The notes below the pieces were generated by a model. It was not told the DNA's origin, did no database searches, and saw only the letters and a program-made list of their open reading frames with translations. DNA of 64,000 nucleotides from Actinomycetota bacterium (GTDB lineage: Bacteria; Actinomycetota; UBA4738; CALAEC01): NCBI GenBank assembly GCA_036000545.1, contig DASYVD010000004.1, positions 1,260 to 65,259 on the forward strand, given 5' to 3'. The translations under genes and the position numbers were made by a program. Positions 2,802 to 53,217 of the stretch are shown here, in pieces. How positions within the stretch are numbered: position 1 is the first letter of the stretch; each line of letters begins with the position of its first letter.

Positions 2802-3854
<1,053 letters not shown>

Positions 3855-3858
<4 letters not shown>

Positions 3859-4494: not shown

Positions 4495-4591
4495 CCGACC
4501 GAGTATATCGGCCGCCTCTGGCTCGTGCAAAAGCCCGGGGTCTTCATTTTCGCTGGTAGAAGGCCGGATTCGGTCCGCAGCACCCTCACCT

Positions 4592-4607
4592 TGTGAACGG
4601 TTTCACA
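4592..4607. promoter_or_regulatory. Perfect CRP/FNR-family binding site TGTGA-N6-TCACA in the divergent atpZ/potA intergenic region
   Basis: The sequence is ttGTGAacggttTCACAa, a perfect 5+6+5 palindrome, lying about 100 nt upstream of the potA start. Confidence 0.45.
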
Positions 4608-4709
4608 AACTCGGAGCCGTGGTCTTCACCGGCGTGTCCCCGTCGCGGCTCCCCGCCACGGTGTACAAACAGGGAACTCGTTTCGCCCGTCGCGGAGGCA
4701 CCGCCGCGG

Positions 4710-7104: not shown

Positions 7105-7106
7105 AC

Positions 7107-7982
7107 GTGGCCGTCGCCGCCGAGCGCCCGGGCTTCGGGCTCCGCCGGGGACTGGTCGCCTACCTGCTCCTGGTTCCCGGGATCGCCTGGCTGCTGGTCT
7201 TCTACGCGTGGCCCACGATCCAGATGTTCTTCATCTCGCTGCAGGAGGGATCGCTCGAGCGTGGCTACCAGCTCACCTGGCACTGGGCGACATACGGAGA
7301 CGTGTTCTCCAAATACTCAACCCAGCTCATCAGATCGGTGGGGTACGGCCTGATCGTGACGGTGGCCTGCCTGCTGATCAGCTACCCGCTGGCGTACTTC
7401 ATCGCCATCTACGGGGGCCGATGGAAGAACGCTCTGCTCTTCATGGTGATCCTGCCGTTCTTCGTCTCGTTCCTGATCCGGACCCTGTCGTGGAAGTTCA
7501 TCCTGGCCGACAACGGGCTGTTCCTCGGAACGATCAAGCAGATCGGACTGCTGCCGGACGACTTCCGCTTGCTCGCAACCCCGATCGCGGTGATCTCCGG
7601 CCTCATCTACAACTTCCTCCCCTTCATGGCCTTGCCCCTGTACGCATCGTTGGAGAAGCTCGACCGAAGCCTCCTCGAGGCGGCCCAGGACCTCTACTCC
7701 AGCCGGGCGGTGGCGTTCCTCAAGGTGACCCTGCCGCTGTCCCTGCCCGGCGTGTTCGCCGGTTCGCTCCTCACCTTCATCCCCGCCATGGGGGACTTCA
7801 TCAACCCGGCCCTGCTCGGCGGCCCCAACACCACGCTGATCGCGAACGTGATCCAGCGCCGCATGCTGATCAGCAACGATTACCCAGAGGGCGCAGCGAT
7901 CTCATTCATCCTCATGGCCGCGATCCTGGTGGGCGTGGCCGTATACGCGAAGCTCCTAGGAACCGAGGAGCTTACCGGGTGA
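7107..7982 (+). CDS. potB: Spermidine/putrescine ABC transporter permease
   Basis: It is a 6-TM ABC permease with the EAA-like loop LEAAQDLYSSRAVAFLKVTLPL. Confidence 0.85.
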   Translation: MAVAAERPGFGLRRGLVAYLLLVPGIAWLLVFYAWPTIQMFFISLQEGSLERGYQLTWHWATYGDVFSKYSTQLIRSVGYGLIVTVACLLISYPLAYFIAIYGGRWKNALLFMVILPFFVSFLIRTLSWKFILADNGLFLGTIKQIGLLPDDFRLLATPIAVISGLIYNFLPFMALPLYASLEKLDRSLLEAAQDLYSSRAVAFLKVTLPLSLPGVFAGSLLTFIPAMGDFINPALLGGPNTTLIANVIQRRMLISNDYPEGAAISFILMAAILVGVAVYAKLLGTEELTG

Positions 7983-15235: not shown

Positions 15236-17143
15236 CTACTGTTGGCTGCTCTCACACCTCACGAAGGTGTCGGCACCAGGGCCGCCGAAGCAGCGGTCGT
15301 TGGTACCCCGCCCGCCGTCCAGGTGGTCGTTGCCCCGGCCACCGAACAGCCTGTCGTTGCCGCGGCCGCCCAACAGCGTGTCGGAACCACGGCCTCCGCG
15401 GAGCACGTCCCGGCCACGGCCGCCCCTGAGGGTGTCGGCGTTCCTGCCGCCACGCAGGTCGTCGGCGCCACGGGCTCCCCGGAGGTCGTCCGCCCCCGCG
15501 CCGCCGCGCCCGAGGTCCGCACCGGCACCCGCCAGCAGGAGGTCGTTGCCGCCCAGCCCGCTGAGGGTGTCGTTCCCACCGAACGCGCAGATGATGTCAG
15601 CCCCGGCGGTGCCCGTCAGAACGTCGGCACCGGGAGTCCCGATCACGTCGTTCCGCGGGTCCCCCTCGTAGCCGGGGCACTCCGGCGTCGGCCCCACCAC
15701 AAAGCCCGTGTCAACGTTGAGGCCGAAGAAGCACCCGTTGGTGCACGAGTCCGCCACCGCGTCGATGTTCCCGTCGCTGTTCAGGTCCACGAGCCCATTG
15801 TTGGCGGGATCGGGAGGGTTCCCGAAGCCGCATGGGTTCGTCTCCGCGGCGTTGTTCCCGAGGATGTCGGCCCCGTCCGTGGGGTCGCCGAGGCCGGCGT
15901 CGGCCGTCTGGCCGATGAGCCCGAAGTGACAGTCGTTGAAGTTGATGAACTCGTTGCCGTCGGAGTCCACCCGGCCGCCGATCGCGGACCACGCGAAGTC
16001 GGAGTCGCTGACATCGTTATTGTCCGGATCCGCCGCGTTGAACACGGTGGGCAGCGGTCCATTCGCCACCTGGAACTCCCCGTCGATGACCTCGATCAGC
16101 ACACCGTCAGCGGTACCGTCGTAGCCGCGGAGCTCACAGTCGTCGGCGCCGGTGATCGCACCGTTGCCGGCGGTGCCGTCGTTCTCCGTCGTCCAGTTGT
16201 TGCAGTCCAGGAAGCCGTCGATGATGTGGGTGTCGCCGTAGAACGCGTTCGAATCGTCGCGGCCGGTGACCGCGCCGTCACCGTTGAGGTCGGCCACTCC
16301 GCCGACGATGGTTGGAGAGAAGCCTCCGGTGAACGCATTTGCCGGAGGAGTGGGGAACGGACCGGGCTGCGCCTCCTGCACCACGCCAGTGTCGACGTTA
16401 TGGCCGAAGAAGCAGCCGTTGGTGCAGGAATCCGCGGCGGCGGTGATCTCCCCGTCGCTGTTCAGGTCGACGAGCCCGTTGTTGGCCGCATCGGGCGGGT
16501 TCCCGAACCCACACGGGTTCGTGTTCGCCTGGGTGTTCCCGAGGATGTCCGCCCCGTCCGTCATGTCGCCGGCCCCGGCGTCGACGGTCTCGCCGATGAG
16601 CCCGAAGTGACAGTCGTCGGCAGTGATCTGCTCGTTGCCGTTGGAGTCCACCCGGCCGTTGATCGTGGACCAGGCGAAGTCGGAGTCACCCACGTCGGGG
16701 TTGTCCGGATCCGACGCGTTGAACACGGTTGGCAGCGGTCCATCGCCCACTTGGAACTCGCCGTCCACGACGCCGATGGTTACCCCGTCGGCCGTGCCGT
16801 CGTACCCAATGAGCGTACAGTCATCGGCCGCTGTGATCGCTCCGTCGCCGGCGCTGCCTTCGTTCGCCGTCGCCCCCCAGGCGTTACAGTCGAGCCCGCC
16901 GTCGATGATGTGGGTGTCGCCGTAGAACGCGTTCGAGTCGTCGCGGCCGGTGGCCTCGTTGTCACCGTTGAGGTCGGCCAGTCCGTCGAAGACCGTCGGC
17001 GAGATGCCTCCGGTAAACGGCGCAGCCGCAGCCGGGCCCGCCAGCGTGAGCTGAGTGACGAACGCCATCACGAAAAGCGCGCCCAGGGCCGCTACACGGC
17101 GGCGAGCCCTTCCCGGGCGCGTGGTCGAGCGAATCAAATTCAT
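15236..17143 (-). CDS. Secreted Asp/Cys-rich calcium-binding-like repeat protein: Tat-like signal, 2 x about 229-aa tandem domains, C-terminal RTX/hemolysin-type GG repeats
   Basis: The N-terminus RPGRARRRVAALGALFVMAFVTQLTLAGPAAAAP is Tat-like. Two near-identical modules each contain DLNGDxxxTGRDD and DLNSDGxIxAxAD (dockerin/EF-hand-like) loops plus 7 Cys. The C-terminus carries at least 10 GGxGxD-like repeats (GGRGNDRLFGGRGNDHLDGGRG). A strong RBS GGAAGGAG lies 7 nt upstream of the ATG. Confidence 0.7.
   Translation of the reverse strand: MNLIRSTTRPGRARRRVAALGALFVMAFVTQLTLAGPAAAAPFTGGISPTVFDGLADLNGDNEATGRDDSNAFYGDTHIIDGGLDCNAWGATANEGSAGDGAITAADDCTLIGYDGTADGVTIGVVDGEFQVGDGPLPTVFNASDPDNPDVGDSDFAWSTINGRVDSNGNEQITADDCHFGLIGETVDAGAGDMTDGADILGNTQANTNPCGFGNPPDAANNGLVDLNSDGEITAAADSCTNGCFFGHNVDTGVVQEAQPGPFPTPPANAFTGGFSPTIVGGVADLNGDGAVTGRDDSNAFYGDTHIIDGFLDCNNWTTENDGTAGNGAITGADDCELRGYDGTADGVLIEVIDGEFQVANGPLPTVFNAADPDNNDVSDSDFAWSAIGGRVDSDGNEFINFNDCHFGLIGQTADAGLGDPTDGADILGNNAAETNPCGFGNPPDPANNGLVDLNSDGNIDAVADSCTNGCFFGLNVDTGFVVGPTPECPGYEGDPRNDVIGTPGADVLTGTAGADIICAFGGNDTLSGLGGNDLLLAGAGADLGRGGAGADDLRGARGADDLRGGRNADTLRGGRGRDVLRGGRGSDTLLGGRGNDRLFGGRGNDHLDGGRGTNDRCFGGPGADTFVRCESSQQ
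15659..17023 (-). repeat. Intragenic tandem duplication (2 x 687 nt) within the secreted repeat protein gene
   Basis: The protein modules aa 41-269 and 270-495 are about 75% identical. The antisense frame also repeats with a 687-nt offset (ORF 15936..16124 matches ORF 16623..16925). Confidence 0.75.
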
Positions 17144-17544
17144 ACCATTGCTCCTTCCGAGATCGGCACCGCGAATGGTGCCAAATCGTTACAAATGAGG
17201 CAGCGAGCCTCGGGGTCGCACCCCGCCCGGTCGCTACCCTGGAACCGCGGATGCGGTCCCTTGAGGTTCTCACAGGCCCCCAACCGGCCTCCTTTCCCAG
17301 GTTCTACAAAGCGCAGGAACGCTACCATCCCGACAACTCGGGAAACAAGACCCAAAACCCGAGGTCAGGGAGCCCCTTGCTGGCCGTCACCGGACGTGCC
17401 AGGTCGCTCCCTCATTCCTCACCCATTGATAACGACAAGGGAAGCCGAAGGTTGCTGCCAAACTGCCTTCTTTGGCCGAACATACCGAGCCGTTAGGGCA
17501 CGGCTTCAGAGAGCAGGTGCGTGGGGGGTTAGCAGCGACAAAGG

Positions 17545-18351: not shown

Positions 18352-19683
18352 TTACGCGGAAGCCCGAACCGAAACCACCGGAGGAAGGTGCTCGACCAGA
18401 CGGCCCCAGGTCACTCCGCCGTCCGCCGACCCGAACACCTCGCCGGACTCGGCCCCGAAGAAGAGGCCCAGCGGATCTCGCCCGTCGTGGCAGAAGGCCT
18501 GCCGGAGCACGGTCAGGTACGCCTCGTCCTGAGGAAGCCCATCGAAGCGCGCTTGCCATGAACCGCCGCGGTCGCTGGTCTCGAACACGCGAACCTTCCC
18601 GTCGGGGGTCACGCGGTCGAAGTCCCCACGCAGGGGAATGACGAATGCCCGGTCGGAGTCCCTCGGGTCCACGACCAGGGGGAAGCCGAAGTCTGAGGGC
18701 AGCCCCTCCCCGATGTCCTGCCAGGTCTCACCGGCGTCGTCGGAGCGGTACACGCCGCCGTGGAACTGGAGGTACAGGGTCTCGGGCTGCACGGGAGAGC
18801 GGTGGACGTTGTGCACACACAGGTCCGTCGCACCCTCCCGGGCCTCCTCCGGCAGGTACGGTGCAACGAGCCCCTTGATCCCCCGCCGCCACGACTTGGC
18901 ACCGTCATCGGTCAGCCACACTCCTGCCGCGGAGATCCCCACCGCCATCCGGTCGGGATCGCCCGGCCACGTGGCGATGGAGTGGAGACAGAGGCCTCCG
19001 GCCCCGGGCTCCCACGTCGGCCGGCTCGGCTCCTCCCATAGGCCACGGTTGAGCGCCCAGGTCCGGCCACCGTCCTCGCTTCGGAACAAGGACGCGGGGG
19101 CGACGCCCGCCCAGAGGACGTCGTTCTCCTCACCCGGTTGGATCACCCAGATCCGCTCCACCGCGGCGCCGGCCTCCTCGGGGAAGGCCGGCCCGGACGA
19201 CTGCTCCCAGTCCTTCACTGTGGGATCGTCGGCGACGTACAGCCGCGGCCCGTACTGCCCGTGAGTGACCGATGCGAGATAGGTTCCCGAACGCCGATCC
19301 CGGATTGCGTACTCGACGGTCTGTCCGGAGAACTGCCGGGCAGCCACCTCCATCCGCCCGCCTCGCGGGCCGCGCAGGACGTACAGCCCCTTGCGGGTGC
19401 CGACCAAGAGCTCCCCGGCGTCGCTTCCCCCGGAGATCGCCCCCAGGACGTCCACCCGGTCAACCGTTGCCACGGACACGTCGAGCCCGGCGCGCTCTCC
19501 GTTCACGAACAGCTTGACGTGCTCGCGGACCGAGCCGCGTTCGTCGAGGATCCATCCCGTGAGGCGGGGGTGTGTCTCCTGGAGGCGACGAACGACTTCA
19601 CCGAGGGTCTGCCCCTCGACCTGCAGAGCGCCGTTCCCTCCGGCGAGCTCCCGAAGCGGAGATCGCAGCCGAACCGTAGTCAC
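18352..19683 (-). CDS. Fusion protein: N-terminal MoaD/ThiS-like ubiquitin-fold domain ending in Gly-Gly, plus a BNR/sialidase-like (Ycf48-like) beta-propeller
   Basis: The first 86 aa, MTTVRLRSPLRELAGGNGALQVEGQTLGEVVRRLQETHPRL...VDVLGAISGG, have MoaD/ThiS topology with a terminal GG. The remainder carries at least 5 BNR motifs (SEDGGRTW, TDDGAKSW, SDDAGETW, SDRGGSW, SADGGVTW). Confidence 0.7.
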   Translation of the reverse strand: MTTVRLRSPLRELAGGNGALQVEGQTLGEVVRRLQETHPRLTGWILDERGSVREHVKLFVNGERAGLDVSVATVDRVDVLGAISGGSDAGELLVGTRKGLYVLRGPRGGRMEVAARQFSGQTVEYAIRDRRSGTYLASVTHGQYGPRLYVADDPTVKDWEQSSGPAFPEEAGAAVERIWVIQPGEENDVLWAGVAPASLFRSEDGGRTWALNRGLWEEPSRPTWEPGAGGLCLHSIATWPGDPDRMAVGISAAGVWLTDDGAKSWRRGIKGLVAPYLPEEAREGATDLCVHNVHRSPVQPETLYLQFHGGVYRSDDAGETWQDIGEGLPSDFGFPLVVDPRDSDRAFVIPLRGDFDRVTPDGKVRVFETSDRGGSWQARFDGLPQDEAYLTVLRQAFCHDGRDPLGLFFGAESGEVFGSADGGVTWGRLVEHLPPVVSVRASA

Positions 19684-19692
19684 GTTCGAAGC

Positions 19693-24235: not shown

Positions 24236-25735
24236 CTAATCCCTCACAGGGGCCTTGGCGATCTCCTTGAGGAACTGCTCGTTCGACTTCGTGGACCGGA
24301 TCTTGTCGATGAGCATCTCGACCGCCGCGTTGGAGTCCAATGCGTGCAGCACCCGGCGGAGCCGCCACACGAGCGCCAGCTCCTCCTGGGCCATGAGGCG
24401 CTCCTCCTTGCGGGTACCGGAGGCCTCGATGTTGATGGCCGGGTAGATCCGCTTCTCGGCGAGGTTCCGGTCCAGCCGAAGCTCCATGTTCCCGGTGCCC
24501 TTGAACTCCTCGAAGATCTGGTCGTCCATCCGGGAGCCCGTCTCCACCAGGGTGCTGGCGATAATGGTCAGCGACCCGCCCTCCTCGATGTTCCGGGCGG
24601 CCCCGAAGAACCTTCTCGGGGGATAGAGGGCCGTGGAGTCGATACCCCCGGACAGGATCTTGCCCGAGGCGGGGGCGGACAGGTTGTACGCCCGGGCCAG
24701 CCGGGTGATGGAGTCGAGCAGGATGGCCACGTCGTTCCCCTGCTCCACCAGGCGCTTGGCCCGCTCCAGCACCAGCTCGGTGACCTGGATGTGCTGGTCG
24801 GGGGGCTTGTCGAAGGTCGAGTACACGACCTCCGCGGCCTCCACGGTCCGCTGCCAGTCGGTGACCTCCTCGGGCCGCTCATCGACCAGCAGCACCATCA
24901 CGTGGGTCTCGGGATTCGAATTGATGATGCCGTTGGCGATCTGCTTGAGGACCGTGGTCTTCCCGGCCTTCGGCGGAGACACGACCATCCCACGCTGGCC
25001 CTTCCCGATCGGGGCCACCAGGTCGATGATCCGCTCCGTGACCGCGAGCGGACCGTTCTCCAGGCGGAACCGCTCCTCGGGGAACAGCGGCGTCAGCTTC
25101 TCGAACTCGCGACGCCCCCGGGCCTCGTCGGGGCTGACCTGGTTGACCGTGTCGATCCGAAGCAGCGCCCAGTACTTCTCGTTGTCCTTGGGCGCCCGGA
25201 CGGCGCCGGTGATCTGGTCTCCCTTGCGCAGGCCAAACCGCCGGATCTGCGAGAGCGAAACGTAGATGTCGCCCTGGCTCGGCAGGTATCCCTGGGTGCG
25301 GAGGAACCCGTAGCCCTCCGGAAGGACGTCGAGGATCCCGGTTCGCACCGGCGCCTCGGCTAGCTCCTCCTCCGTGGCCTCACGCGGCCGTTCCCGGTCG
25401 CGATCGCGGCCACGCCGGCGCCGGCGGTCCCTGCCGCCGCGCTCCGGCCGGCCGCCCGTCTCCTCTTCCCGGGTCTCGGGAGCAGCCTCCGCCGTGGCCG
25501 TGCTACCGCGCCCCGACTCGGAGTTGGCCGTCCGGCTCGAGGGTGCGTCCACGGAGCTCCCGTCGGCCTCGCTCGGGGCTCGCTGCTGCCCGTTCACCTT
25601 GGTCAGGATGGCGTCGATAAGCTCGCTTTTCTTCAGCCGCTGGAAGCCCTCGACGCCGGCCGCCGCGGCGATCTCGTGCAGCTCGGTGAGAACCTTCTGC
25701 TCCAGGACCGATCTGTCGATCGTGCGTGAATCCAC
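24236..25735 (-). CDS. rho: Transcription termination factor Rho with an actinobacterial Arg/Asp/Glu-rich N-terminal insertion
   Basis: It is 499 aa with Walker [18 protein letters not shown] loops, and an RD/RE-rich insert ([21 protein letters not shown]). Confidence 0.9.
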
Positions 25736-25738
25736 CTC

Positions 25739-26404
25739 TTATGCTCCTTCCTTGCCCAACTTCTTCTTCAGCTCCGCCCAGTCCGACAGGAACTTCTCCA
25801 GCCCCACGTCGGTGAGCGGGTGTTTCACCAGCTTGGTGAACACGTCATACGGCATCGTCGCGATGTCCGCGCCGGACAGCGCCGCGTCGACGATGTGCAT
25901 TGGGTGGCGCAGGGATGCCGCGAGCACCTTCGTCTCGTACCCCTGGATCTCGTAGATATCACAGATCTGCCGCAGCGCGTGCATGCCATCCGCCGCCGCA
26001 TCGTCGATCCGGCCGAGGAACGGGGACACGATGTACGCCCCGATCTCCGCCGCCAGGATCGCCTGCGCGGGAGAGAACACTAGCGTGACGTTGATCCGAA
26101 CCCCGTCCCCGACCAAGCGCCTCCCCGCCTTGAGCCCGTCTGGGGTCATGGGCACCTTGACCACGGCGTTCGGGCCCATGGTGGCGAGGTACTTCCCCTC
26201 CTCGTACATCTTGTCGGCTTCGGGCTCTGTGGTCTCAAGCGAGACGTCGCCCTCGACCTCCGTCAGGATCTCCTTCCACAGCTGGACCGGGTCGGCCCTC
26301 TCCTTGCCCACCAGGGTCGGGTTGGTGGTGACCCCCGACAGCACACCCCACGAGTTGATCTCGCGGATCTCGTCGATGTTCGCCGTGTCGAGGAACAGCT
26401 TCAC
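25739..26404 (-). CDS. Fructose-6-phosphate aldolase / short transaldolase (Tal-FSA family)
   Basis: It is 221 aa (VKLFLDTANIDEIRE...VTTNPTL...FVSPFLGRIDD). The GTG start has an AAGGAGGG RBS 7 nt upstream and overlaps the upstream stop (GTGA). Confidence 0.8.
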   Translation of the reverse strand: MKLFLDTANIDEIREINSWGVLSGVTTNPTLVGKERADPVQLWKEILTEVEGDVSLETTEPEADKMYEEGKYLATMGPNAVVKVPMTPDGLKAGRRLVGDGVRINVTLVFSPAQAILAAEIGAYIVSPFLGRIDDAAADGMHALRQICDIYEIQGYETKVLAASLRHPMHIVDAALSGADIATMPYDVFTKLVKHPLTDVGLEKFLSDWAELKKKLGKEGA

Positions 26405-27384
26405 AGCGTCTTCCCTCCTTCGAACTCTGGCACGCGCATCGATTCCGCCCTGGGCCGGTGCGCTGCCGCCCACTCGGTGGCCCGCTCCACTACCAGGTCG
26501 ATCACGTCGGCGATCGTCTGGTCCAGGCTGTAGCTGGGAACGATCGGCCACCCATGTGAGAGCGCTTGGCTCTTGATGTACCGCTGCACCTTCCGGATGT
26601 TGTCGAAGCTCGCGAGGTAGTGGTCGAAGGGGCGGCGGGACGGCTCCATTGTACGGGCGATGAAGTGGCTCCGATGGACGTCCTCGTCCTCCACGGTGAT
26701 GACCATGGGGATGGGGGCCACGAAGTCTTCGAGGTCCGCGGTCTCCACGAACCCGGGGACCACGTGCGCTCCTTCGATCACAGTGCTTGATTTCCTGGAC
26801 CCTTCCACAGCCGCCCGCTCGATCAGGGCGTGGACTCCCACGGCGATCGCTGTGGTCTGCTCCCGGAACCCCACGATGACCTTGTCGGCCGGCCGCGGGG
26901 GAGGCTCCCGCAACGCGGAGTCGGCGTCGAACGACGACGTGTGCAGCGTGGGCATGAGCTTGTGAGAGAACAGAGCTCGCATGACCTCCCGGATGGAATC
27001 CGTAGCTACGACGCGGACGATGTCCATACGGTCCGCCACCTTGGTGGCTATGGTGGACTTCCCAACGCCGGTGGCTCCGCCGATCAGGATCACCAGGGGG
27101 ACGTCCAGGTCCGACACATTCTGCCAACGGATGAAGTTCTTGGCGTAGCGGTCCCCGGCCACTTCCTCAAGCACTTGAATGGCCACGTCCCGGAGCTCCT
27201 GCCTGGTTACGGAAGAAAATTGATGCTCCACGAGGTAGTCCTCGATCTTCTCGGCCACCTGGTACGCGCGGTAGGGCGTCATCCCGGTGACCATTACCTG
27301 GGAGGCCATCAGGCCCTTGGAGTAGGGGAGTCCTGGCTCCTGGTCGGAGATGACGACGTTCTGGGTCCGCTTCTTCTTCTTCAT
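26401..27384 (-). CDS. 2-phosphoglycerate kinase (archaeal-type, P-loop)
   Basis: It is 327 aa from MKKKKRTQNVVISDQEPGLPYSKG, with P-loop GGATGVGKST. This is the first step of cyclic 2,3-diphosphoglycerate synthesis and is directly upstream of cDPGS. Confidence 0.75.
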   Translation of the reverse strand: MKKKKRTQNVVISDQEPGLPYSKGLMASQVMVTGMTPYRAYQVAEKIEDYLVEHQFSSVTRQELRDVAIQVLEEVAGDRYAKNFIRWQNVSDLDVPLVILIGGATGVGKSTIATKVADRMDIVRVVATDSIREVMRALFSHKLMPTLHTSSFDADSALREPPPRPADKVIVGFREQTTAIAVGVHALIERAAVEGSRKSSTVIEGAHVVPGFVETADLEDFVAPIPMVITVEDEDVHRSHFIARTMEPSRRPFDHYLASFDNIRKVQRYIKSQALSHGWPIVPSYSLDQTIADVIDLVVERATEWAAAHRPRAESMRVPEFEGGKTL

Positions 27385-27403
27385 GTTGTCTCCGCGGCCG
27401 CGC

Positions 27404-28765
27404 TTAGCTCGATCCGGCGATGCGCCGGTCGCGTCCCTCACTCTCGGCGCGTTCCATCGCAGCCCGAGCCGCCTCCAGCAGGAGGTCGGGGAGCTGCCCG
27501 TCGCCCCCGAGCGTCTCCGCCCGGTTGTCGGCGAACACCACCTCGGCCCCCCGTGCCAGGGCCCGCTCGGCGGCCACGTCCACCGCCGCCGCTTTTAGCT
27601 CGGTGAGCAGGATCTCGAACGACGGAGCGCCGTCGAGGTCCTCGCCCACGCCATTACGGTCGGCCAGCCTGTGGGTCACGCCGACGACCTGGCAGCCGTG
27701 AGCCTCTTCCAGGTGCGAGGCTACGGATGCACCTACGTCGGGCGGAGCCGTGGTCGCGAAGTACACCTTCTTCCCCCTGACCTCGCGTAGCGGAACCGGC
27801 TTGAGCTCCGCCACGACTACCCGTGCATCAGGACGAAGCCTACGGATGTGGGATATCAGGATGGGAACGCGGCCCCCATCGGGGCCACTCCCCAATGTTA
27901 GCACGACCAGGTCTGAAAGCAATACTCGATACGGACCGAAGTAGCCGCCCAGATATTCCTCCGGTGAACCGGCTGAGGCCACCAGGACGCCAGCGTCCCA
28001 CGGCACGGGCGGGACGGCCGACCCACTCCCCTCCAGGATGACCAGGCCCGCCCCGGCTCGGACGGCCACCTGAGCAGCCTCGTGGACGTTCGAGGCGAAG
28101 GGAGCCCCGGCGAGCCCGCCGCCGACACGCCGGGCACCCACGGTGGTCACTCCGGTGGTCATGGCGTCCTCCAGGTAGTCACTGGCGGCGTGCTCCCCCC
28201 GCCGGGCCAGCTCCAGGAGCCGGTCGAGCCCCAGTGATCCGGCTTCCGCCACCTGAGGTTCGGGCGGTCCGCCCCGGCCCATCGCCACCACCACGGGGTC
28301 GAGCCCAGCCCTGGCTGTGACCCGGGCCGCCTCACCAGCGATGGCGGTCTTCCCGGTCCGCTTCCCGGTGCCGATGACCGCGAGAGTGGGCACGGCCAGG
28401 GGAGCGGCCGTGATGGGGGGCTCCAGGCGGAAGTCCGAGCCCACGTAGGGGATCCCGGCGGCCAGCGTCACCGCCGCCAACAGCATCCGTTCGCGGTAGC
28501 CGAGAACCGGCTCGTCCGACAGATCCAGCACGCCGTCCGGACGAACCTCCTCGAGGGCCCGGCGCAGCGCCGAACGGGGATCCTCTCCCCCGTCCAGCAC
28601 CGGCACGTCCCCCAGGTCGAGCCGCCGGTCTGCGCCGAGCTTCTCAGTGCCCCCCAGGAACAAACAGGCGACGACGTCGTACCCGAGGCTCTGCGCGGCG
28701 AAGAGTCCCCACCGCGTGGTGGGGGGGTAGTGTTCACCATCGACGAGCGCGAGCACCCTGTGCAT
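27404..28765 (-). CDS. Cyclic 2,3-diphosphoglycerate synthetase
   Basis: It is 453 aa (MHRVLALVDGEHYPPTTRWGLFAAQSLGYDVVACLFLGGTEKLG...VIGTGKRTGKTAIAGE). The cDPGS family size and motifs match, and the pairing with 2PGK matches the archaeal methanogen pathway. Confidence 0.75.
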   Translation of the reverse strand: MHRVLALVDGEHYPPTTRWGLFAAQSLGYDVVACLFLGGTEKLGADRRLDLGDVPVLDGGEDPRSALRRALEEVRPDGVLDLSDEPVLGYRERMLLAAVTLAAGIPYVGSDFRLEPPITAAPLAVPTLAVIGTGKRTGKTAIAGEAARVTARAGLDPVVVAMGRGGPPEPQVAEAGSLGLDRLLELARRGEHAASDYLEDAMTTGVTTVGARRVGGGLAGAPFASNVHEAAQVAVRAGAGLVILEGSGSAVPPVPWDAGVLVASAGSPEEYLGGYFGPYRVLLSDLVVLTLGSGPDGGRVPILISHIRRLRPDARVVVAELKPVPLREVRGKKVYFATTAPPDVGASVASHLEEAHGCQVVGVTHRLADRNGVGEDLDGAPSFEILLTELKAAAVDVAAERALARGAEVVFADNRAETLGGDGQLPDLLLEAARAAMERAESEGRDRRIAGSS

Positions 28766-28806
28766 GTCGCGATTCGACTCCAGCCGGGCTTCGACCCCCT
28801 GGACCC

Positions 28807-29673
28807 CTAGTCCGTCGGAAGCGGCGCGCCCTGCGATTCGTCGTCGGGCGAACCCTCGCCGGACGACGAACTCAGCGGCGAGTCCGAGAGCCTATGACCG
28901 ATGGGCTCCTGGACCAGGTTCTCCAGCTCCCTGTAGTACTGCTGCCCCGTCGACATGGAGAAATGTGCGATCCGCGTCGACGCTCCGAACGGGAACTTGC
29001 GGAAGATCTTCAGCTCGTCACCATCAAGCTCGACGACGTTGTAACAGGGGCGAGTATGCCCTCGGAGGCGGAGCGAGGAGCAGGTGCCGGCGTTCACGAT
29101 GTAGAGGTTCTCCAAGCGCCACACGTACGGCACGTGCTTGTGCCCCGAGAGCACCAGGTTCACCCCATTCCCAATCAGGATCTCCAGGAGGTCGCCCGCG
29201 TCCATGACCGTGTTGCGCTCGCGGCCTGTGCCGGGGATCGGGATCAGGTGATGGTGCAGAGCAAACACCTTGAGGTCCGCTTGCCCGGCGAACTGCTCCG
29301 CGATCCACGGGTACCGCTCCCGGCCGATCTGTCCCTCGTCGAGGTCGGGCTCGCTGGAGTCCGCCCCCACAACCCGGACCCCTTTCACGTTCGCTCCCCA
29401 GAACCGGGGCCCAATGAGCTCCTCGAAGTGCACGTACCCCACGTTGCGGGCGTCGTGGTTACCCGGGATCGAGTACACGGGGGCAGTGATCCGCTCGAGG
29501 TACGCCACCGCGGTCTTGAACTCCTGGCGATACCCGAAATTGGTGAAGTCGCCCGTGATCACAACGGCGTCGGGCTGGAGCTCGTTGAGCTCCACGATGA
29601 CCCGGTTCATCAGGTTGGGAACGAAGTATGGCGAGCCGACATGGAGGTCGGAGATGTGAGCGATGGTGACCAC
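28807..29673 (-). CDS. Metallophosphoesterase (calcineurin-like)
   Basis: The motifs are ISDLHVG, GDFTNFG, GNHD and ALHHHL. Confidence 0.75.
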   Translation of the reverse strand: MVTIAHISDLHVGSPYFVPNLMNRVIVELNELQPDAVVITGDFTNFGYRQEFKTAVAYLERITAPVYSIPGNHDARNVGYVHFEELIGPRFWGANVKGVRVVGADSSEPDLDEGQIGRERYPWIAEQFAGQADLKVFALHHHLIPIPGTGRERNTVMDAGDLLEILIGNGVNLVLSGHKHVPYVWRLENLYIVNAGTCSSLRLRGHTRPCYNVVELDGDELKIFRKFPFGASTRIAHFSMSTGQQYYRELENLVQEPIGHRLSDSPLSSSSGEGSPDDESQGAPLPTD

Positions 29674-29725
29674 GGTGCAGTTAGTTTACCCCTCGCTTTC
29701 CTCGCTTATCCGCCGTCGTGGGAGG

Positions 29726-30904
29726 ATGGCGCCCGTGAACCTCCTGGACCTCTTCATCATCTTCCTCGTCATCCTCGCCGCAGTTCTTGGGTACCGTAGA
29801 GGAGCAGTGCTCCAGGTCTTCGCCTACGGGGGCCTGGTGCTCGGCCTGTTCCTGGGGGTCCTCCTGGCTCCCCGGGTCGCATCCCTGGCTCGCGACCCGT
29901 TCACCCAGGCCATGCTGGCCCTGGGGACGCTGATCTTCGTGCCCGCCTTGCTGGACGGGGTCGGCTGGTACGTGGGGGCGCACGCATCCGCGGCCACCCG
30001 TCGGGTCTTCGACCCGGTCGACGCCATGGCCGGAACCGTGGTGGGAGCGGTGGCCATGCTCCTGGCCACGTGGCTCCTGGCCTTCAACCTGATCCAGGGG
30101 CCGTTCCCAGTCCTGGCGCGCCAGATCCGGCACTCTGCGGTGGTTCGGGCGATGGACGCGGTGTTCCCCCGGCCGCCGCCGCTCCTGGCACAAGCTCGCC
30201 GGTTCCTCGAGCGGTCGGGGTTCCCAGAGGTGTTCGCGGGCTTGCCCCCCTTCCCGATCGGGCCGGTGCGCAGCCCGACCAGGGGCGAGTTCAACGAAGC
30301 CATCGACGCCTCCGACCAGAGCACTGCGCGCGTCGCCGGTGAAGCCTGCGACCGCATCAGGGTCGGAAGCGGCTTCGTGGTTGAACCCGGCTACATCGTC
30401 ACCAACGCGCACGTGGTCGCGGGGGTGGACGCGCCGGAGGTCCAGTTCCCCGCCGCCGGTCCCTTCGCTGCCACGACGGTCCTGTTCGACGACGACACGG
30501 ACCTGGCGGTGCTCTACGTCGGGAACTCGCTCCCGCGAGATCTGGATCTGCTTGGGTCGGACCTCGATCGTGGCGGCGGTGGAGCCGTTCTCGGCTACCC
30601 CGGTGGAGCGGAGCTCACGGCATCGACTGCCGGGGTCCGCCGCCGGCTGAACGCCGTGGGCCGCGACATCTACGGCCGGGACACCGTTGAGCGCGAGGTG
30701 TACGAGCTCCAGACCAGGGTTCGCCCGGGGAACTCCGGCGGGCCGTTCGTGACCCCCGAGGGGGATGTGGCCGGCGTGGTGTTCGCCGCGTCGACCACGG
30801 ACAACGACGTTGGGTACGCGCTCACGTCGACGCAGGTGGAACCGGTGATCAGACGGGGACTGGGACGCACGAGCGCGGTCGGCACCGGCCCCTGCATCCG
30901 GTAG
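29726..30904 (+). CDS. MarP-like membrane serine protease (CvpA-type TM N-terminus plus trypsin-like S1 domain)
   Basis: The N-terminus has 4 TM helices and a C-terminal chymotrypsin fold follows (TNAHVV ... D ... GNSGGP). The start is ATG 29726 or GTG 29735. The stop TAG sits at the edge of repeat copy 1. Confidence 0.75.
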   Translation: MAPVNLLDLFIIFLVILAAVLGYRRGAVLQVFAYGGLVLGLFLGVLLAPRVASLARDPFTQAMLALGTLIFVPALLDGVGWYVGAHASAATRRVFDPVDAMAGTVVGAVAMLLATWLLAFNLIQGPFPVLARQIRHSAVVRAMDAVFPRPPPLLAQARRFLERSGFPEVFAGLPPFPIGPVRSPTRGEFNEAIDASDQSTARVAGEACDRIRVGSGFVVEPGYIVTNAHVVAGVDAPEVQFPAAGPFAATTVLFDDDTDLAVLYVGNSLPRDLDLLGSDLDRGGGGAVLGYPGGAELTASTAGVRRRLNAVGRDIYGRDTVEREVYELQTRVRPGNSGGPFVTPEGDVAGVVFAASTTDNDVGYALTSTQVEPVIRRGLGRTSAVGTGPCIR

Positions 30905-30976
30905 GGGGGTCCGGGGGGAGTAGCTCGCCCGGAGCCCTCGAGCGGACGAGTAGCATAGCGAGCGGTCCCCCCGGAG
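30904..30976. repeat. Dispersed GC-rich hairpin repeat, copy 1 (family of 4 in this window)
   Basis: The sequence is GGGGGGTCCGGGGGGAGTAGCTCGCCCGGAG-N22-AGCGAGCGGTCCCCCCGGAG. It lies between the convergent ends of the MarP gene and the GDE gene and is immediately followed by TTGACA. Confidence 0.7.
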
Positions 30977-30989
30977 TTGACAGGGCCCG

Positions 30990-33266
30990 CTATTCCTCCA
31001 TCACCACGCGGACGTCGCCGTCCCGGGAGACCAGCGAGAACCCCGTCATCTCCCCCTCGCGGCGGAAGACCAGGGTCAGCGTGCTCTCCCCCACTTTGAG
31101 GTTCCGGAGCTCCACGTAGTTCAGCCACCGGGGGAGGTGAGGCTTGTTCACCGTGAGCAGGTTCTGGTGGGCCATTGCGGAGAGTCCCAGCATCGCCTGG
31201 AGGAGGAGGAACGGGCTCCCCGCGGCCCATGCCTGTGGCGAGCACGCCACCGGGTACTGAACGGGGCTCGTGGGGGTCCTTCGGGTGAACCCGCAGTACA
31301 GCTCGGGGAGCCGCATGTAGTCGCTGTGCACGGCGGCGTCGAACATCGCCGTCGCCACCCGGTTCGTCGTGTTCACGAAGCCGTAGCGCTTCAGCCCCGC
31401 GGCGATCAGCGCGTTGTCGTGTGGCCACACCGAGCCGTCGTGGTAGCTCATGGGATTGTAGGCCTTGGCCGTCTTGCTCATGGTCCGGATCCCCCACCCC
31501 GAGAACATGTCCGGCTGGAACAGTCGTCGGGCCACCTTCTCCGCGAAGTCGTCGTCCACGGCCCCGCAGTACAGGAGATGGCCGGGGTTCGACACCACGG
31601 TGCGAACCTGCTGCTTCGCGCCGTCCAGCGCGCCGGCGAAGTACTGCTCGTCCTCCATCCAGAACGCCTCGGCGAGACGGTCGCGGATTACGGACGCCTC
31701 CTTACGGAGACGGGCGGCCCGCTCCTCGTCGCCGACCACCGCGTAGACGTCGGCCATTCGGACCTTGGCCATGTACACGTATCCCTGTACCTCGACGAGC
31801 GCGATGGGCGGCTCCGCCAGGTTGCCGTCGGTGTGGACCACGGAGTTCCAGGAGTCCTTCCACCCCTGGTTGGTCAGCCCCCGCTTCGACCGGCTCCGGT
31901 ACTCGACCAACCCATCGCCGTCCTGGTCGCCGTACTCGTCGATCCACGCCAGTGCGGCCTCCGCCGCCGGCATGAGCTCGTCGAGGAAGGCCCGGTCGTT
32001 CGTCCACCGGAAGTACTGCGCCAGCAGGATCAGGAACCACGGCGTGGAGTCGACCGACCCGTAGTAGGGAGTATGCGGGAGGAAATTGGAGCCGGCCAGC
32101 TCGCCTCGGCGGATCTCGTGGAGGATCTTCCCGGGCTCCTCGTCGCGCCAGTGGTCAACCTTGGTTCCCTGGAGCCGCGCGAGCACCTGGAGGCTCTCGC
32201 GAGCCGGACCGGTGTTGAGCATGAGGAGCTGATGCGACGTGATCAGGGTGTCTCGCCCGAACACGGCGACGTACCACGGGATGCCCGCGGCGATCACCCC
32301 GCCGCCGTCCAGCCTTGTGTAGAGCGCCCGGAGGTCCCGCAGGCCCCGGGTAAGCAACGAGTTGAAGAGCTCGTTGTCCGTCCGGATCTGGGTGCACTCC
32401 CGCTCCCAGTCCTCGTAGGACCGGCGAAGCTCGTGCACCACGCTGTCGAAGTCGTGGGCGGGGAGCTCCTCCTCGCCGACCTTCGGCTCCACGGTGATGG
32501 CCACCACCTTGGTCTCGTGGGCCTTCAGGTCGAGTCCGAAATCCGCCTCGACGAGGTCGCCGCGGACTTCGAGTCTCGCCGGGTCCATGGCGAACTCGAT
32601 CCGGCTCACCCTCCGCACGCCGTCCTCTCCGAGATACGCGAACTCGACCGTTCGTCCCTCCGCGCGAGGCGGATCGTGGTGCCCGCGCGTGGGCCGAGTG
32701 AGACCCCGAACCTCGAAGATGTCGTGGAAGTCCGCTCCGAACGACAGCTGGATGTCCAGCCGGACCGGGAAGGCGTTGTAGTTCTTCACGCGGATCCGCT
32801 CGTACACGCGGCCGCCGACGGCCCGGAGGCGTCGGATGTTGAGGGTCTGCTGGGGGACGACGAGCTGTTGGTCCTCGTCGTAGAGGGCGGGGTTCGTGAG
32901 ATCCACGAACGACATGTAGGCGCGCTCCGCGGACGAGGAGAGCAGGATCGGATCTCGTCCGGAGATCCGCAGGCGCAGGTGCGACAGGAACCGCGTGTCC
33001 CGGTAGTACATCCCGAGACCGAACCCAGCTCGGTCGTCGAGGTTTCCCTCGGTATCGGAGTAGACGAAGGTCTCACCTTCCTTGACCGCCAGGACCTTGC
33101 TGGGAAGCTCGGCCACGACGACCGGGGCCTGGGCGTGCAACACACGCCCCGCTGCATCGAGGGAGGCTTCGAGGTCTTCCTGCCGGCCGGGCACCGGGCG
33201 ATCGCTCGGGGGTGGCTGGCGGTCGTCGGGAGGTCGGGGAAGAGCGGACGGGTGTTCGTCGCTCAT
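30990..33266 (-). CDS. Amylo-alpha-1,6-glucosidase family (glycogen-debranching-enzyme-like N-terminal and C-terminal domains) protein
   Basis: It is 758 aa with the GDE_C-like six-hairpin glycosidase region WYVAVFGRDTLITS...GLVEYRS....GLTNQGWKDSWNSV. Confidence 0.8.
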   Translation of the reverse strand: MSDEHPSALPRPPDDRQPPPSDRPVPGRQEDLEASLDAAGRVLHAQAPVVVAELPSKVLAVKEGETFVYSDTEGNLDDRAGFGLGMYYRDTRFLSHLRLRISGRDPILLSSSAERAYMSFVDLTNPALYDEDQQLVVPQQTLNIRRLRAVGGRVYERIRVKNYNAFPVRLDIQLSFGADFHDIFEVRGLTRPTRGHHDPPRAEGRTVEFAYLGEDGVRRVSRIEFAMDPARLEVRGDLVEADFGLDLKAHETKVVAITVEPKVGEEELPAHDFDSVVHELRRSYEDWERECTQIRTDNELFNSLLTRGLRDLRALYTRLDGGGVIAAGIPWYVAVFGRDTLITSHQLLMLNTGPARESLQVLARLQGTKVDHWRDEEPGKILHEIRRGELAGSNFLPHTPYYGSVDSTPWFLILLAQYFRWTNDRAFLDELMPAAEAALAWIDEYGDQDGDGLVEYRSRSKRGLTNQGWKDSWNSVVHTDGNLAEPPIALVEVQGYVYMAKVRMADVYAVVGDEERAARLRKEASVIRDRLAEAFWMEDEQYFAGALDGAKQQVRTVVSNPGHLLYCGAVDDDFAEKVARRLFQPDMFSGWGIRTMSKTAKAYNPMSYHDGSVWPHDNALIAAGLKRYGFVNTTNRVATAMFDAAVHSDYMRLPELYCGFTRRTPTSPVQYPVACSPQAWAAGSPFLLLQAMLGLSAMAHQNLLTVNKPHLPRWLNYVELRNLKVGESTLTLVFRREGEMTGFSLVSRDGDVRVVMEE

Positions 33267-33448: not shown

Positions 33449-34315
33449 CTAGAGCCTCCTCAGCTCAGCTCCTGGAGCAATGCGGGGACGGAGGACGCGC
33501 CAGCCGGGTCCGAGCTCTGGGACGACGGCGCTGTCGGTCTCGAACGCGAGGAGCGAAGGCCCCGCTCCCGCCACGCATACCGCCAGGCCGGCGTCGCGGA
33601 GGTCCTGAAAGAGAGCACGAGAGGCCGGGGCCAGGGCCAGCCGGCGGGCCTGGTGGAGCCGGTCTTCGAGGGCCTCGAGAAGGAGCTCGGGCCGGGCGGT
33701 CAGCGCGACCACGGTGAGAGCCGCCCGGCCCACGTTGTGGGCGGCGGCGGAGAGGGGGACCTCTCTCGGAAGGATCCGCCGGGCGTCGGCTGTCGGGACG
33801 CGCTCCTCCTCCGGAACGAGCAGGACAGGGCGGAGCGACGCGTGCGGCTCCAGGGGCTCGGCTCGCCATCCCGTTGCCGATAGATAGGCGACCACCAGCC
33901 CTCCGAGGATGCAGGCGGCCACGTTGTCCGGGTGGCCTTCGATGTCCACAGCGACCTGGAGCAGCCCGGGGGGGTCGAGACGGGACCCGATCAGCTCGTT
34001 GGCGAGCAGGAGACCGGCGACCGTCGCCGACGACGACGACCCGAGACCCCGTTCGAGCGGGATGGCGTTTCGGCACCGGAGTCTGAACGGGGGCAGGGAC
34101 CCGCCGGCCTCGCGCGCGAGGTAGGCCATGGACCGGAACACGAGGTTGGAGGCGTCCTCGGGGAGCTCACCGGCTCCCTCACCCTCCACGACCACGGCCG
34201 GCCGGGCCTCCGTGTCGACTTCCACCTCGTTCTCGACGTCCACGGCGAGGGCCAGGGCGTCAAATCCCGGGCCGAGGTTGGCCACGGTGGCCGGAGTCCG
34301 GGCGAGGAGGCGCAT
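33449..34315 (-). CDS. thrB: Homoserine kinase
   Basis: It belongs to the GHMP kinase family (TVANLGPGFDALALAV, PLERGLGSSSSATVAG). The ATG overlaps the thrC stop (ATGA). The start was trimmed from the ORF 33449..34429. Confidence 0.85.
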   Translation of the reverse strand: MRLLARTPATVANLGPGFDALALAVDVENEVEVDTEARPAVVVEGEGAGELPEDASNLVFRSMAYLAREAGGSLPPFRLRCRNAIPLERGLGSSSSATVAGLLLANELIGSRLDPPGLLQVAVDIEGHPDNVAACILGGLVVAYLSATGWRAEPLEPHASLRPVLLVPEEERVPTADARRILPREVPLSAAAHNVGRAALTVVALTARPELLLEALEDRLHQARRLALAPASRALFQDLRDAGLAVCVAGAGPSLLAFETDSAVVPELGPGWRVLRPRIAPGAELRRL

Positions 34316-35400
34316 CAGAGACCGAGCTCGGCGGCCACCGCGTCGGGGTCGGCCGGGACCGTCGCCGGCGGAACGGTCCGGGACACCGCGACCTGAGGGT
34401 CCTTCAGACCGTGGCCGGTGAGGACGCACACGACGACGTCCCCGCGCGAGATTCGCTCCCCCTCGGCCACCGCCAGAAGCCCGGCCACCGACGCCGCCGA
34501 CGCCGGCTCGCAGAAGATGCCCTCTCTGGCCAACCGGTCGTACGCGGCCAGGATGTCGTTGTCGGGGACGGCCAGGATGTCTCCCCCGGATTCCTCCGCG
34601 GCCCGGACGGCTCCCTCCCAGGACGCCGGGTTGCCGATGCGGATCGCGCTGGCAACCGTCTCGGGGTGCTCGACCGGCTCCCCGCGAACGATCGGCGCCG
34701 CGCCCTCGGCCTGGAACCCGAAGACAACCGGCAGGGCGTCCGTCCTCCCGCCGTCCCGGTACTCTCGGTAGCCCATCCAGTGGCTGGTGATGTTCCCCGC
34801 ATTCCCCACCGGAAGGAGGTGGACGTCGGGTGCACGACCGAGGGCGTCACAGATCTCGAAAGCGCAGGTCTTCTGACCTTGCAGCCGGTCGGGGTTCACC
34901 GAGTTGACCATGGTGACGGGGTGGGCGTCGGCGAGCTGGCGGGTGAGGACCAGCGCTCGGTCGAAGCTCCCTTCGACCTCGAGGACCCTGGCCCCGGCCA
35001 CCAGCGTCTGGGCCATCTTCCCGAGAGCCACTCCGCCCTTGGGCACGACGACGGCGCAGGTGAGCCCGGCCCGGGCGGCATACGCCGCGGCCGAGGCGCT
35101 GGTGTTGCCGGTGGACGCGCACACCACGGCCTTCGACCCCTGCTCCAGGGCCTTGGAGACGGCCACGGTCATCCCCCGATCCTTGAACGAGCCGGTCGGG
35201 TTGGCTCCCTCGACCTTCAGGAAGACCTCGCAGCCCGTCGCCTGGGAGAGGGAGGCGGACCGAACCAGCGGCGTCCCACCCTCGAGCAGAGTGACCACCG
35301 GGGTCGCGTCGGTCACGGGCAGCCGGGCCCGGAACTCCTCGATGACCCCGCGCCAGGGCGCGGGGCGGGCCCTTCTCGGCGAGCCAGCCCTACTCGCCAC
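34315..35400 (-). CDS. thrC: Threonine synthase
   Basis: It has the PLP-fold motif [22 protein letters not shown] and sits in operon with hom and thrB. Confidence 0.85.
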
Positions 35401-40118: not shown

Positions 40119-40190
40119 GCGCCCGTAGCTCAGGGGATAGAGCACCGGCCTCCGGAGCCGGGTGCGGAGGTTCGAATCCTCCCGGGCGCA
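40119..40190 (+). tRNA. tRNA-Arg (anticodon CCG)
   Basis: The cloverleaf has acceptor GCGCCCG/CGGGCGC, D-arm GCTC-AGGGGATA-GAGC, anticodon arm CCGGC-CTCCGGA-GCCGG and T-arm GGAGG-TTCGAAT-CCTCC, with discriminator A. CCA is not encoded. Confidence 0.85.
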
Positions 40191-40314
40191 CACTGCCGGG
40201 GGCGTGCCTGCTCTGCTGATGTTCCCACCCCCGCTCTGCAGGTCAAAGCCTCCGTATAGGATGTGCAGGCACCCGGCCTGCATCACCGGAGGGCTGTCCC
40301 GACGAGGTGGCATC

Positions 40315-44412: not shown

Positions 44413-45243
44413 CTATCCCAGGCCTCGGGCGTCCTGCTTCAGCGCGGTGTCGACCGCCAGCGAAGCGGCCACCACGAGGCTCCGCAGGGGATCCTCGAGC
44501 GGCCGGTGGATCTGAACCACGTAATTGTCGGCCGTCGTGAACAGGGTCTTGGCCAGGCCCTCCCACGTCTTCGTGATCCGAGCGACTTCCATCCCCGACT
44601 GGTCCTGAATGTTGAAGTTCCACGCCCGCCAGTTCTCCGCGTTGATCGAGCCGCACGCCTGACCACCGGCCTCGAGCGAGAACCGGATCTTCCCGATGAC
44701 GTTCTGCTGGACGATCTGGCCGATCTCCCGGCCGCCGGCGTCCTCTACGACGATTCGTGACTTGAGGAGCTTCGCGGGTCGCGTGAGCCGCAGGATGACG
44801 CTACCCCTCGTGTCGACGATCTCGAGTCGATGAGTCAGGTACTGATCCAGCGAGGTGAGCAGCCGCAGGGCCTTGCGGGCGGTGCTCTGGCCGACCTGTC
44901 GAACGGCGCCGATCTGGTTCGCCTCGCGATCGAAGACCGCGTACTCGTTGGTCAGCTCGAAGATCTTGGCCTTCTGGTTGACCACGAGCACGGGCTCGGT
45001 GAGCACGGTGCCGCCGCCGGGCATCCCCGCTCCCTGGGCGCCCGCCCGGGTCACGTCTTGACGGATCTTGTCCGGCGAGCGCTGGACGGTAGGGACCGTC
45101 GGGCTGCCTACTGGCTCATCCATGCTCGTTTGACCACCGGTGGAGACGTGAGCAGTCCACGCTCGTCCGTCCCAGTACCGCAGCTCGTCCCGGCCCAGCG
45201 GGTCGGGGTACCAGCCGGCCGCGGCTTCGCCTCCGCTGGTCAC
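44413..45243 (-). CDS. DUF2510 (N-terminal) plus LURP-one-related/scramblase-like (Tubby C-2) domain protein
   Basis: The N-terminus reads [24 protein letters not shown]. The C-terminus has a LOR-like fold. Confidence 0.65.
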
Positions 45244-45356
45244 GGCCGGGACGCTACCAGGTCGGGGCGCGATATGCGCGAATGGGAGTCGGACGTGGCG
45301 GGTGCTTCCTTCTCACTCTCCTGCGAGGGCCGACCGGCCCTCTCGCCGTCGCCCTA

Positions 45357-53073: not shown

Positions 53074-53217
53074 ACCACAGATTGTGGCCCACGGAGGTTG
53101 CGAAAGTCTTACGACCCATAGGCCTCCGGAGAATTCCGCAACCCGTAACGGTCCTGAAAGGGTCCGGCAAGATCCCTCCTCCACACTTGCGGCCATCCGA
53201 CCACGAAGGAGGGAACG

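Follow-up and report, generated by a model that had tools for sequence, protein, structure and literature searches.

The 64,000-nucleotide stretch of DNA analysed here (referred to below as the window; GC content of about 68%), from a contig of an Actinomycetota bacterium, contains a block of six genes located between thrB and rho. At the core of this block are two minus-strand genes encoding homologs of the enzymes of the archaeal pathway for cyclic 2,3-diphosphoglycerate (cDPG): a homolog of cDPG synthetase (cDPGS; 27404-28765, 453 aa, ATG start) and a P-loop kinase of the 2-phosphoglycerate kinase (2PGK) family, of the COG2074 type (26401-27384, 327 aa, ATG start). Upstream of the synthetase gene, on the same strand, lies a gene for a metallophosphoesterase (28807-29673), and downstream of the kinase gene lies one for a short, TalC-type transaldolase (25739-26404), which is followed by rho (24236-25735); the two remaining members of the block encode a MarP-family membrane serine protease and a GDE-type glucosidase. 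Genes in the window were selected by the GC content of third codon positions and then confirmed with profile searches, which also established that the block is bordered by thrB and rho. A first-pass annotation, made from the sequence before these searches, had placed the block between the same two genes and had all of the genes at the right positions and, by implication, on the right strands, with the glucosidase gene falling just outside the end coordinate (30976) of the region that it described.

The synthetase had no match in the copies of Pfam-A and NCBIfam that were searched, both of which lacked PF27272, and was identified by a sequence search of the PDB. It aligned over its full length with the cDPGS of Methanothermus fervidus (8ORU/8ORK; phmmer E = 1.3e-94, residues 3-438 on 5-453; 40% identity over 436 aa) and also matched a second deposited cDPGS (9SXB; 8.9e-94). 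The identical protein in the NCBI collection (HEV8681217.1) is named ‘2,3-diphosphoglycerate synthetase’ and has a precomputed assignment to the Pfam family CpgS_N (PF27272). The residues of the M. fervidus enzyme that bind 2,3-diphosphoglycerate (2,3-DPG), Mg and ATP have been named from its structure, with E45 and K46 being contributed by the partner subunit (PMC10690619). All ten of the ligand-binding and catalytic residues named in that work are retained in the window protein, with E41 corresponding to E45, K42 to K46, K135 to K145, R136 to R146, K139 to K149, T140 to T150, D196 to D208, T339 to T353, E389 to E404 and K391 to K406. Four of these (K135, R136, K139 and T140) belong to the Walker A motif, IGTGKRTGKT, in which, in M. 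fervidus numbering, Lys145-Arg146 bind 2,3-DPG, Lys149 is catalytic and Thr150 is an Mg ligand; Asp208, the second Mg ligand, is present as D196. The ten residues are 100% conserved across 75 bacterial loci from other genomes, and invariant or nearly so in 58 representatives of the family.

Structure prediction led to the same assignment. An AlphaFold2 (AF2) model of the monomer (predicted local distance difference test score, pLDDT, 84.9; predicted template modelling score, pTM, 0.80) was matched by Foldseek to 8ORU and 8ORK with template modelling (TM) scores of 0.82 and 0.79, respectively, the next fold being that of LpxK at 0.35. LpxK, UreG and HypB share the P-loop core fold with the cDPGS C-terminal domain, as also described for the archaeal enzyme (PMC10690619), but are set apart from it by low TM scores (0.29-0.35) and identity (13-16%), and by the absence of the CpgS N-terminal domain and of the substrate-binding residues. 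Conservation of the Glu-Lys pair that acts in trans is consistent with a homodimer in which the active site would be formed between subunits. Judging from these comparisons, the window synthetase is complete and selectively maintained, with the active site of the M. fervidus enzyme.

The kinase aligned with nearly the full extent of the NCBIfam model PRK04220, ‘2-phosphoglycerate kinase’ (286 bits, E = 3.5e-85, model positions 3-298 of 306), and scored 268 bits with PRK12337, whereas the models of paralogous families, PRK12338 (147 bits) and mevalonate-3-phosphate 5-kinase (61 bits), scored far below the 2PGK models. Its Walker A motif is GGATGVGKST; no solved 2PGK structure was found for a comparison of residues. 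The gene call at 26401-27384 is the same in IMG, where the product is named 2-phosphoglycerate kinase. The kinases that accompany cDPGS in Streptomyces, an Aquicultor-like clade and another phylum likewise have their best matches among the 2PGK models: the other actinobacterial partner kinases score 256-313 bits with the 2PGK model, and the partner from the other phylum (locus L074) scores 362 bits, which passes the equivalog cutoff. The L074 kinase differs from that of the window in having a Pfam ATP-cone match, which the N-terminal region of the window protein lacks. The view of both proteins as homologs of the archaeal pathway enzymes, put forward in the first-pass annotation, is thus upheld by the phmmer alignment and the 2PGK model scores, and the active-site motifs of the synthetase, to which it had drawn attention, are intact.

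The minus-strand genes of the block are tightly packed. The metallophosphoesterase gene ends 41 nt upstream of the cDPGS gene; the stop codon of the latter (TAA, 27406-27404) is separated from the ATG of the kinase gene (27384) by exactly 19 nt, the distance originally noted, with GGAG at -9; the GTG start of the transaldolase gene overlaps the TGA stop of the kinase gene by 4 nt (GTGA); and rho, the last gene of the run, has its GTG start 3 nt past the transaldolase stop (junction sequence ...GGAGCATAAGAGGTG). A scan for promoters and terminators detected no terminator-like sites or consensus promoters within the block, so that the operon structure is read from the spacing, and an Rfam search returned no leader or riboswitch at the gathering threshold or at E <= 0.1. 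Given this arrangement, the cDPGS-2PGK pair is most likely co-transcribed with rho. We also observed that rho has no leader of its own and that relatives share the tight junction, with 1 nt in L005 and 21 nt in L088. If rho is autoregulated, the control would thus have to be exerted within or upstream of the cDPG genes.

To place the pair in a broader context, we scanned one genome per species, with an alignment of 11 sequences as the seed (an alignment of 58 representatives was too diverse for this purpose), and found relatives of the cDPGS in at least 480 species genomes; the family comprises 241 clusters at 50% identity (E <= 1e-30). The window proteins were mapped onto loci from the best 80 of these genomes, and the counts that follow give the loci with a feature out of those with enough sequence. 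The 80 genomes are nearly all from uncultured Actinomycetota, with many drawn from the soil catalogue SMAG and from metagenome-assembled genomes (MAGs) of Danish soils and sediments (PMC10640626, PMC12313526); two archaeal MAGs, a single Bacillota MAG and representatives of Candidatus Aquicultor, Euzebyaceae and Acidimicrobiia are also among them. Of 79 independent loci, all from genomes other than that of the window, 75 have a 2PGK homolog next to cDPGS. The surrounding genes recur as well: a metallophosphoesterase is encoded directly upstream of cDPGS in 52/72 loci, including deep clades with 40-48% cDPGS identity, a transaldolase downstream of cDPGS, between 2PGK and rho, in 59/73, and rho is found downstream of the pair in 57/65 and thrC upstream of cDPGS in 44/58. 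The resulting order, thrC-thrB-[GDE, MarP]-metallophosphoesterase-cDPGS-2PGK-transaldolase-rho-prfA, appears in dozens of species-level Actinomycetota MAGs and is retained down to 40-48% cDPGS identity (for example, in L055, L059, L060, L062, L067 and L088). MarP is present in many, although not all, of the syntenic loci, and the GDE glucosidase, a variable member, in about half. Proteins identical to those of the window are already public (HEV8681215 to HEV8681220).

In two clades, the block additionally carries an archaeal-type cofactor-independent phosphoglycerate mutase (PhosphMutase and Metalloenzyme domains), which is missing from the block of the window itself. The mutase gene is directly upstream of cDPGS in six loci of the Acidimicrobiia clade (L081, at 6303-7673; L075, L078, L065, L072 and L076) and within the block in three Aquicultor-like loci (L088, at 3577-4752; L059 and L067). 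Judging from these gene assignments, mutase, cDPGS and 2PGK would represent three consecutive steps encoded side by side, from 3-phosphoglycerate (3PG) to 2-phosphoglycerate (2PG), 2,3-DPG and cDPG. The Acidimicrobiia version, ApgM-cDPGS-2PGK-rho, resembles the window in the position of the pair, upstream of rho within the thr-rho region, but has the mutase in the place of the phosphoesterase and no transaldolase. In L074, the gene order of the pair is reversed, with the gene for the ATP-cone 2PGK overlapping the start of cDPGS.

Cluster look-ups for cultured hosts yielded Streptomyces only, the other representatives being metagenome proteins and one Candidatus Bipolaricaulota MAG. The Streptomyces cassette (strains NRRL S-920 and WAC 01529, and S. 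anatolicus; WP_051819753.1 cluster) consists of a cDPGS with 47% identity to that of the window and an overlapping 2PGK gene with a 40% identical product. Unlike the pair in the window, it is isolated, outside the thr-rho region, and lacks a neighbouring phosphoesterase, transaldolase or rho gene. The copy in Streptomyces sp. NRRL S-920 (L086, 8001-10276; JODF01000029.1) is located a few kb from a DDE transposase gene; the Streptomyces pair looks horizontally acquired and accessory. A further variant was observed in the Bacillota MAG-64 (L066, 7041-12140), where the genes flanking a cDPGS homolog encode a GntR/UTRA regulator and the binding protein and permease of an ABC transporter, and no 2PGK gene is adjacent, a context that hints at another use of the cDPGS family.

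Two further enzymes are encoded in the minus-strand run. The gene downstream of the kinase had been labelled as one for fructose-6-phosphate aldolase (FSA), a label that we replace. Its product, of 221 aa, scores above the cutoff with the TalC/FSA-family model TIGR00875 (262 bits), and its top PDB matches are all transaldolases (1VPX, 2.6e-73; 1WX0; 3R8R; and 3S0C, 8e-61), compared with 8e-29 for the Escherichia coli FSA (1L6W). Work by Sautner et al. from 2015 is said to have assigned Gln and Tyr to FSA at the positions where transaldolase has Glu60 and Phe132 (Thermoplasma acidophilum numbering); the window protein keeps the Glu (DVSLE), the Phe (VSPFLGR) and the Schiff-base Lys. The Glu/Phe signature, along with the transaldolases being the nearest PDB relatives, rules out FSA, and by these features the product of 25739-26404 is most likely a short transaldolase. 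The metallophosphoesterase (288 aa; Pfam Metallophos, 2.9e-21) is of the class III type (GpdQ/Rv0805/CpdA-like), and the nearest proteins of solved structure are GpdQ (2ZO9; 8e-12) and Rv0805 (2e-11). We know of no gene that has been connected with cDPG hydrolase activity, and the phosphoesterase is a candidate for the hydrolase of cDPG or 2,3-DPG.

We consider it likely that the locus encodes a working bacterial two-step cDPG pathway. The 2PGK homolog would convert 2-phosphoglycerate and ATP to 2,3-DPG, and the cDPGS homolog would convert 2,3-DPG and ATP to cDPG, ADP and inorganic phosphate, with the ring presumably closed by the dimeric P-loop mechanism proposed for the M. fervidus enzyme, which involves two SN2 steps (PMC10690619). 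The intact cDPGS active site, the match of the kinase to the 2PGK model and the homology to the archaeal enzymes make it reasonable to infer that the organism indeed produces cDPG. Co-transcription with rho would probably entail constitutive expression, and the metallophosphoesterase could open or dephosphorylate cDPG or 2,3-DPG, returning carbon and phosphate to glycolysis. As for the function of the compound, roles discussed for cDPG in Methanothermobacter are those of an osmolyte and of a store of carbon, phosphate or energy, and its hydrolase is known there only as an activity (PMC1224877). By analogy, a soil bacterium would be better served by such roles than by heat protection, and in the host of the window cDPG probably is an osmolyte or stores phosphate and carbon; it might serve there as an anionic osmolyte, as a desiccation solute or as a reserve of phosphate, carbon or energy, rather than as a thermoprotectant. 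A more far-reaching possibility, which we regard as somewhat doubtful, is that a large, mostly uncultured and mesophilic branch of Actinomycetota, represented by at least 480 species-level genomes, would make cDPG constitutively as a core metabolite, from an operon shared with the essential rho gene, with the phosphoesterase as the cDPG hydrolase and a cycle of synthesis and hydrolysis buffering phosphate, carbon and osmotic state.

Several observations weigh against a bacterial cDPG pathway of this kind. The 2PGK family includes enzymes that act on other substrates, mevalonate-3-phosphate 5-kinase among them, and the window kinase, with 286 bits, does not reach the equivalog cutoff of NCBIfam (343 bits), so that the protein is filed as a 2PGK-family kinase and its function is deduced from the linkage to cDPGS. 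The NCBI pipeline names it ‘zeta toxin family protein’ (HEV8681216.1); under this name, the NCBI records hide the pathway. In the synthetase, the residue corresponding to M. fervidus E305, which contacts adenosine, is a Ser, at a position that is variable across the family. The phosphoesterase is not found in the Acidimicrobiia and Streptomyces versions and is thus not obligatory, and the co-transcription with rho is deduced from spacing only. Finally, reviews and the enzymology papers of 2023-2025 present cDPG as restricted to hyperthermophilic methanogens (PMC10690619, PMC12136491) and regard it as a thermoprotectant, and in the literature we found no report of cDPG in bacteria, the publications that we found on the synthetase all dealing with archaea.

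Part of this evidence could also be accommodated if the pair were real but had another product or worked in another direction: 2,3-DPG could be the end point, as a cofactor or regulator, a related diphosphorylated acid could be cyclised, or the synthetase could run mainly in reverse and regenerate ATP from a store of the cyclic pyrophosphate. The M. fervidus enzyme has been reported to be reversible, with a role in energy storage discussed (PMC1224877), and the subthreshold score of the kinase, the lack of bacterial cDPG in the literature that we found, and the Bacillota homolog that is accompanied by a GntR regulator and an ABC importer instead of a 2PGK could be viewed in the same light. Conversely, the residues that contact 2,3-DPG or stabilise the transition state of cyclisation in 8ORU (E45, K46, K145, R146, K149 and K406) are invariant in the bacterial clade, and the linkage to a mutase that interconverts 3PG and 2PG in two clades points to phosphoglycerate chemistry, so that we hold a different product or direction to be rather improbable. 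It would be a far less probable proposition that the kinase is an unrelated P-loop, zeta toxin-like protein whose place beside cDPGS is metabolically meaningless. The database name and the Pfam matches of the kinase to Zeta_toxin (24 bits) and AAA_33 point that way, but both matches are weak, compared with a full-length alignment at 286 bits to the 2PGK model, and the adjacency extends over 75 of 79 loci, across gene orders and phyla; we give this reading hardly any credence, the least of all those considered here.

The first-pass annotation had viewed the block as an accessory island, possibly of horizontal origin, and as a hint of a thermophilic lifestyle. The argument in favour of a recently acquired archaeal island that signals thermophily is that the characterised enzymes are archaeal and hyperthermophilic, that the genes between thrB and rho look inserted by comparison with model actinobacteria, such as Mycobacterium tuberculosis, where we take these two genes to be neighbours (Rv1296 and Rv1297), that the Streptomyces pair, close to a transposase gene, looks accessory, and that the window-wide IVYWREL fraction is 0.417, nominally predicting growth at about 55 C, from a gene set contaminated by a few antisense ORFs. 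Composition provides no support for this scenario. A comparison of the six genes of the block with 28 flanking genes, which the earlier annotation had suggested, revealed no difference in GC content (Mann-Whitney p = 0.19), GC content at third positions (GC3; p = 0.26) or relative synonymous codon usage (RSCU; p = 0.74), and at the block we detected no border repeats, other than short chance matches, and no adjacent tRNA gene, integrase, transposase or Rfam element. In a neighbour-joining tree, the window cDPGS is placed within a clade of actinobacterial sequences (99% bootstrap) and apart from those of methanogens; the deep branches have bootstraps of 32-56%. In dozens of species-level genomes of Actinomycetota, the block is found at an identical position, down to 40% identity. 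Together, the conserved synteny, the flank-like composition and the absence of border marks rule out a recent island in this lineage.

The case for thermophily fares no better. The relatives that carry the block come from soil and sediment catalogues, and for seven core proteins the IVYWREL fraction of the window, 0.428, falls within the 0.415-0.429 spanned by the Danish soil and sediment relatives; because the values for these proteins do not set the window apart from such relatives, the estimate of 55 C was discarded as evidence, and composition gives no sign of thermophily. We therefore rate a recent, thermophily-related acquisition as very improbable, and the comparison of gene orders and sequences indicates that the block has been inherited vertically and belongs, as a conserved component, to the core thr-rho-prfA-atp region in many, mostly uncultured Actinomycetota.

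The predicted bacterial pathway, as we prefer to view the locus, relies on the same two enzyme families as that of archaea, with the two-domain fold of cDPGS shared at 40% identity, along with the Walker A signature GTGKRxGKT that includes the substrate-binding Lys-Arg, the Mg ligands and the trans-subunit Glu-Lys pair. It differs from the archaeal pathway in several respects: the host, a bacterium of high GC content, belongs to a soil-type lineage and shows no sign of thermophily; the pair is contained in one operon, whereas the two genes are not adjacent in the two archaeal loci compared; the operon adds a metallophosphoesterase, a transaldolase and rho; and the product is a predicted one. 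The enzymes come from families already known, and the synthetase carries its name in annotation pipelines; what appears to be new is the range of hosts, the conservation of an operon linked to rho, the linkage of a mutase and the hydrolase candidate. That hundreds of bacterial species share an operon which is old, conserved and part of the core, as it would appear from these data, conflicts with the view of cDPG as a compound of hyperthermophilic archaea only. If bacterial synthesis is real, the presumed role of cDPG would shift from heat protection to osmotic or desiccation protection or to storage of phosphate, carbon and energy, a phosphorus-rich solute would be added to soil phosphorus cycling, and mesophilic, probably salt-independent enzymes would become available for biotechnological production of cDPG; furthermore, a candidate gene can now be named for cDPG breakdown. 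The question is directly testable because cultured Streptomyces strains carry the pair.

The two other members of the block are a protease and a glucosidase. The MarP-family membrane serine protease gene is on the plus strand (29663-30904, with the start likelier at 29726), and its product scores 352 bits with the NCBIfam model MarP_fam_protase (cutoff of 250), the alignment to the model beginning at residue 28. The ORF that opens at 29663 overlaps the start of the divergent phosphoesterase gene at 29673, and its second Met is residue 22; the true start is probably this Met22, at 29726, which would give a divergent promoter region of 52 nt. The GDE-type amylo-alpha-1,6-glucosidase gene (30990-33266, minus strand; 758 aa) is assigned by Pfam matches to GDE_N_bis (5.8e-58), MGH1-like_GH and GDE_C, and by a PDB match to 7VMA (1.2e-93). 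At the upstream border of the block is the homoserine kinase gene, thrB (33449-34429, minus strand; Pfam GHMP_kinases_N and GHMP_kinases_C), which is preceded on the same strand by argS, a GNAT gene, hom and thrC. At the other end, the 499-aa transcription termination factor Rho (minus strand) contains the Pfam domains Rho_N, Rho_RNA_bind and ATP-synt_ab, and its gene is followed on the same strand by rpmE, DUF1385, prfA and prmC and, farther on, by glyA, rpiB and atpF.

Elsewhere in the window, a 650-aa protein with six matches to RTX (HemolysinCabind) calcium-binding repeats is encoded at 15236-17188 on the minus strand, amid housekeeping genes, between a ThiS/BNR gene and one for a low-molecular-weight phosphatase. 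A 443-aa protein encoded at 18352-19692 (minus strand) combines a ThiS-like N-terminus with BNR/Sortilin-type repeats and is conserved, beside sua5, in JGI contigs, and a bacterial protein with a Scramblase domain and DUF2510 is encoded at 44413-45312 (minus strand). The window contains no rRNA gene. ARAGORN predicted a tRNA-Asp of 96 nt at 53233-53328 (plus strand), which is below the Rfam gathering threshold, lies inside a coding-like ORF (53158-53655) and is probably a false positive. A tRNA-Arg(CCG) at 40119-40191 was found by both ARAGORN and Rfam.

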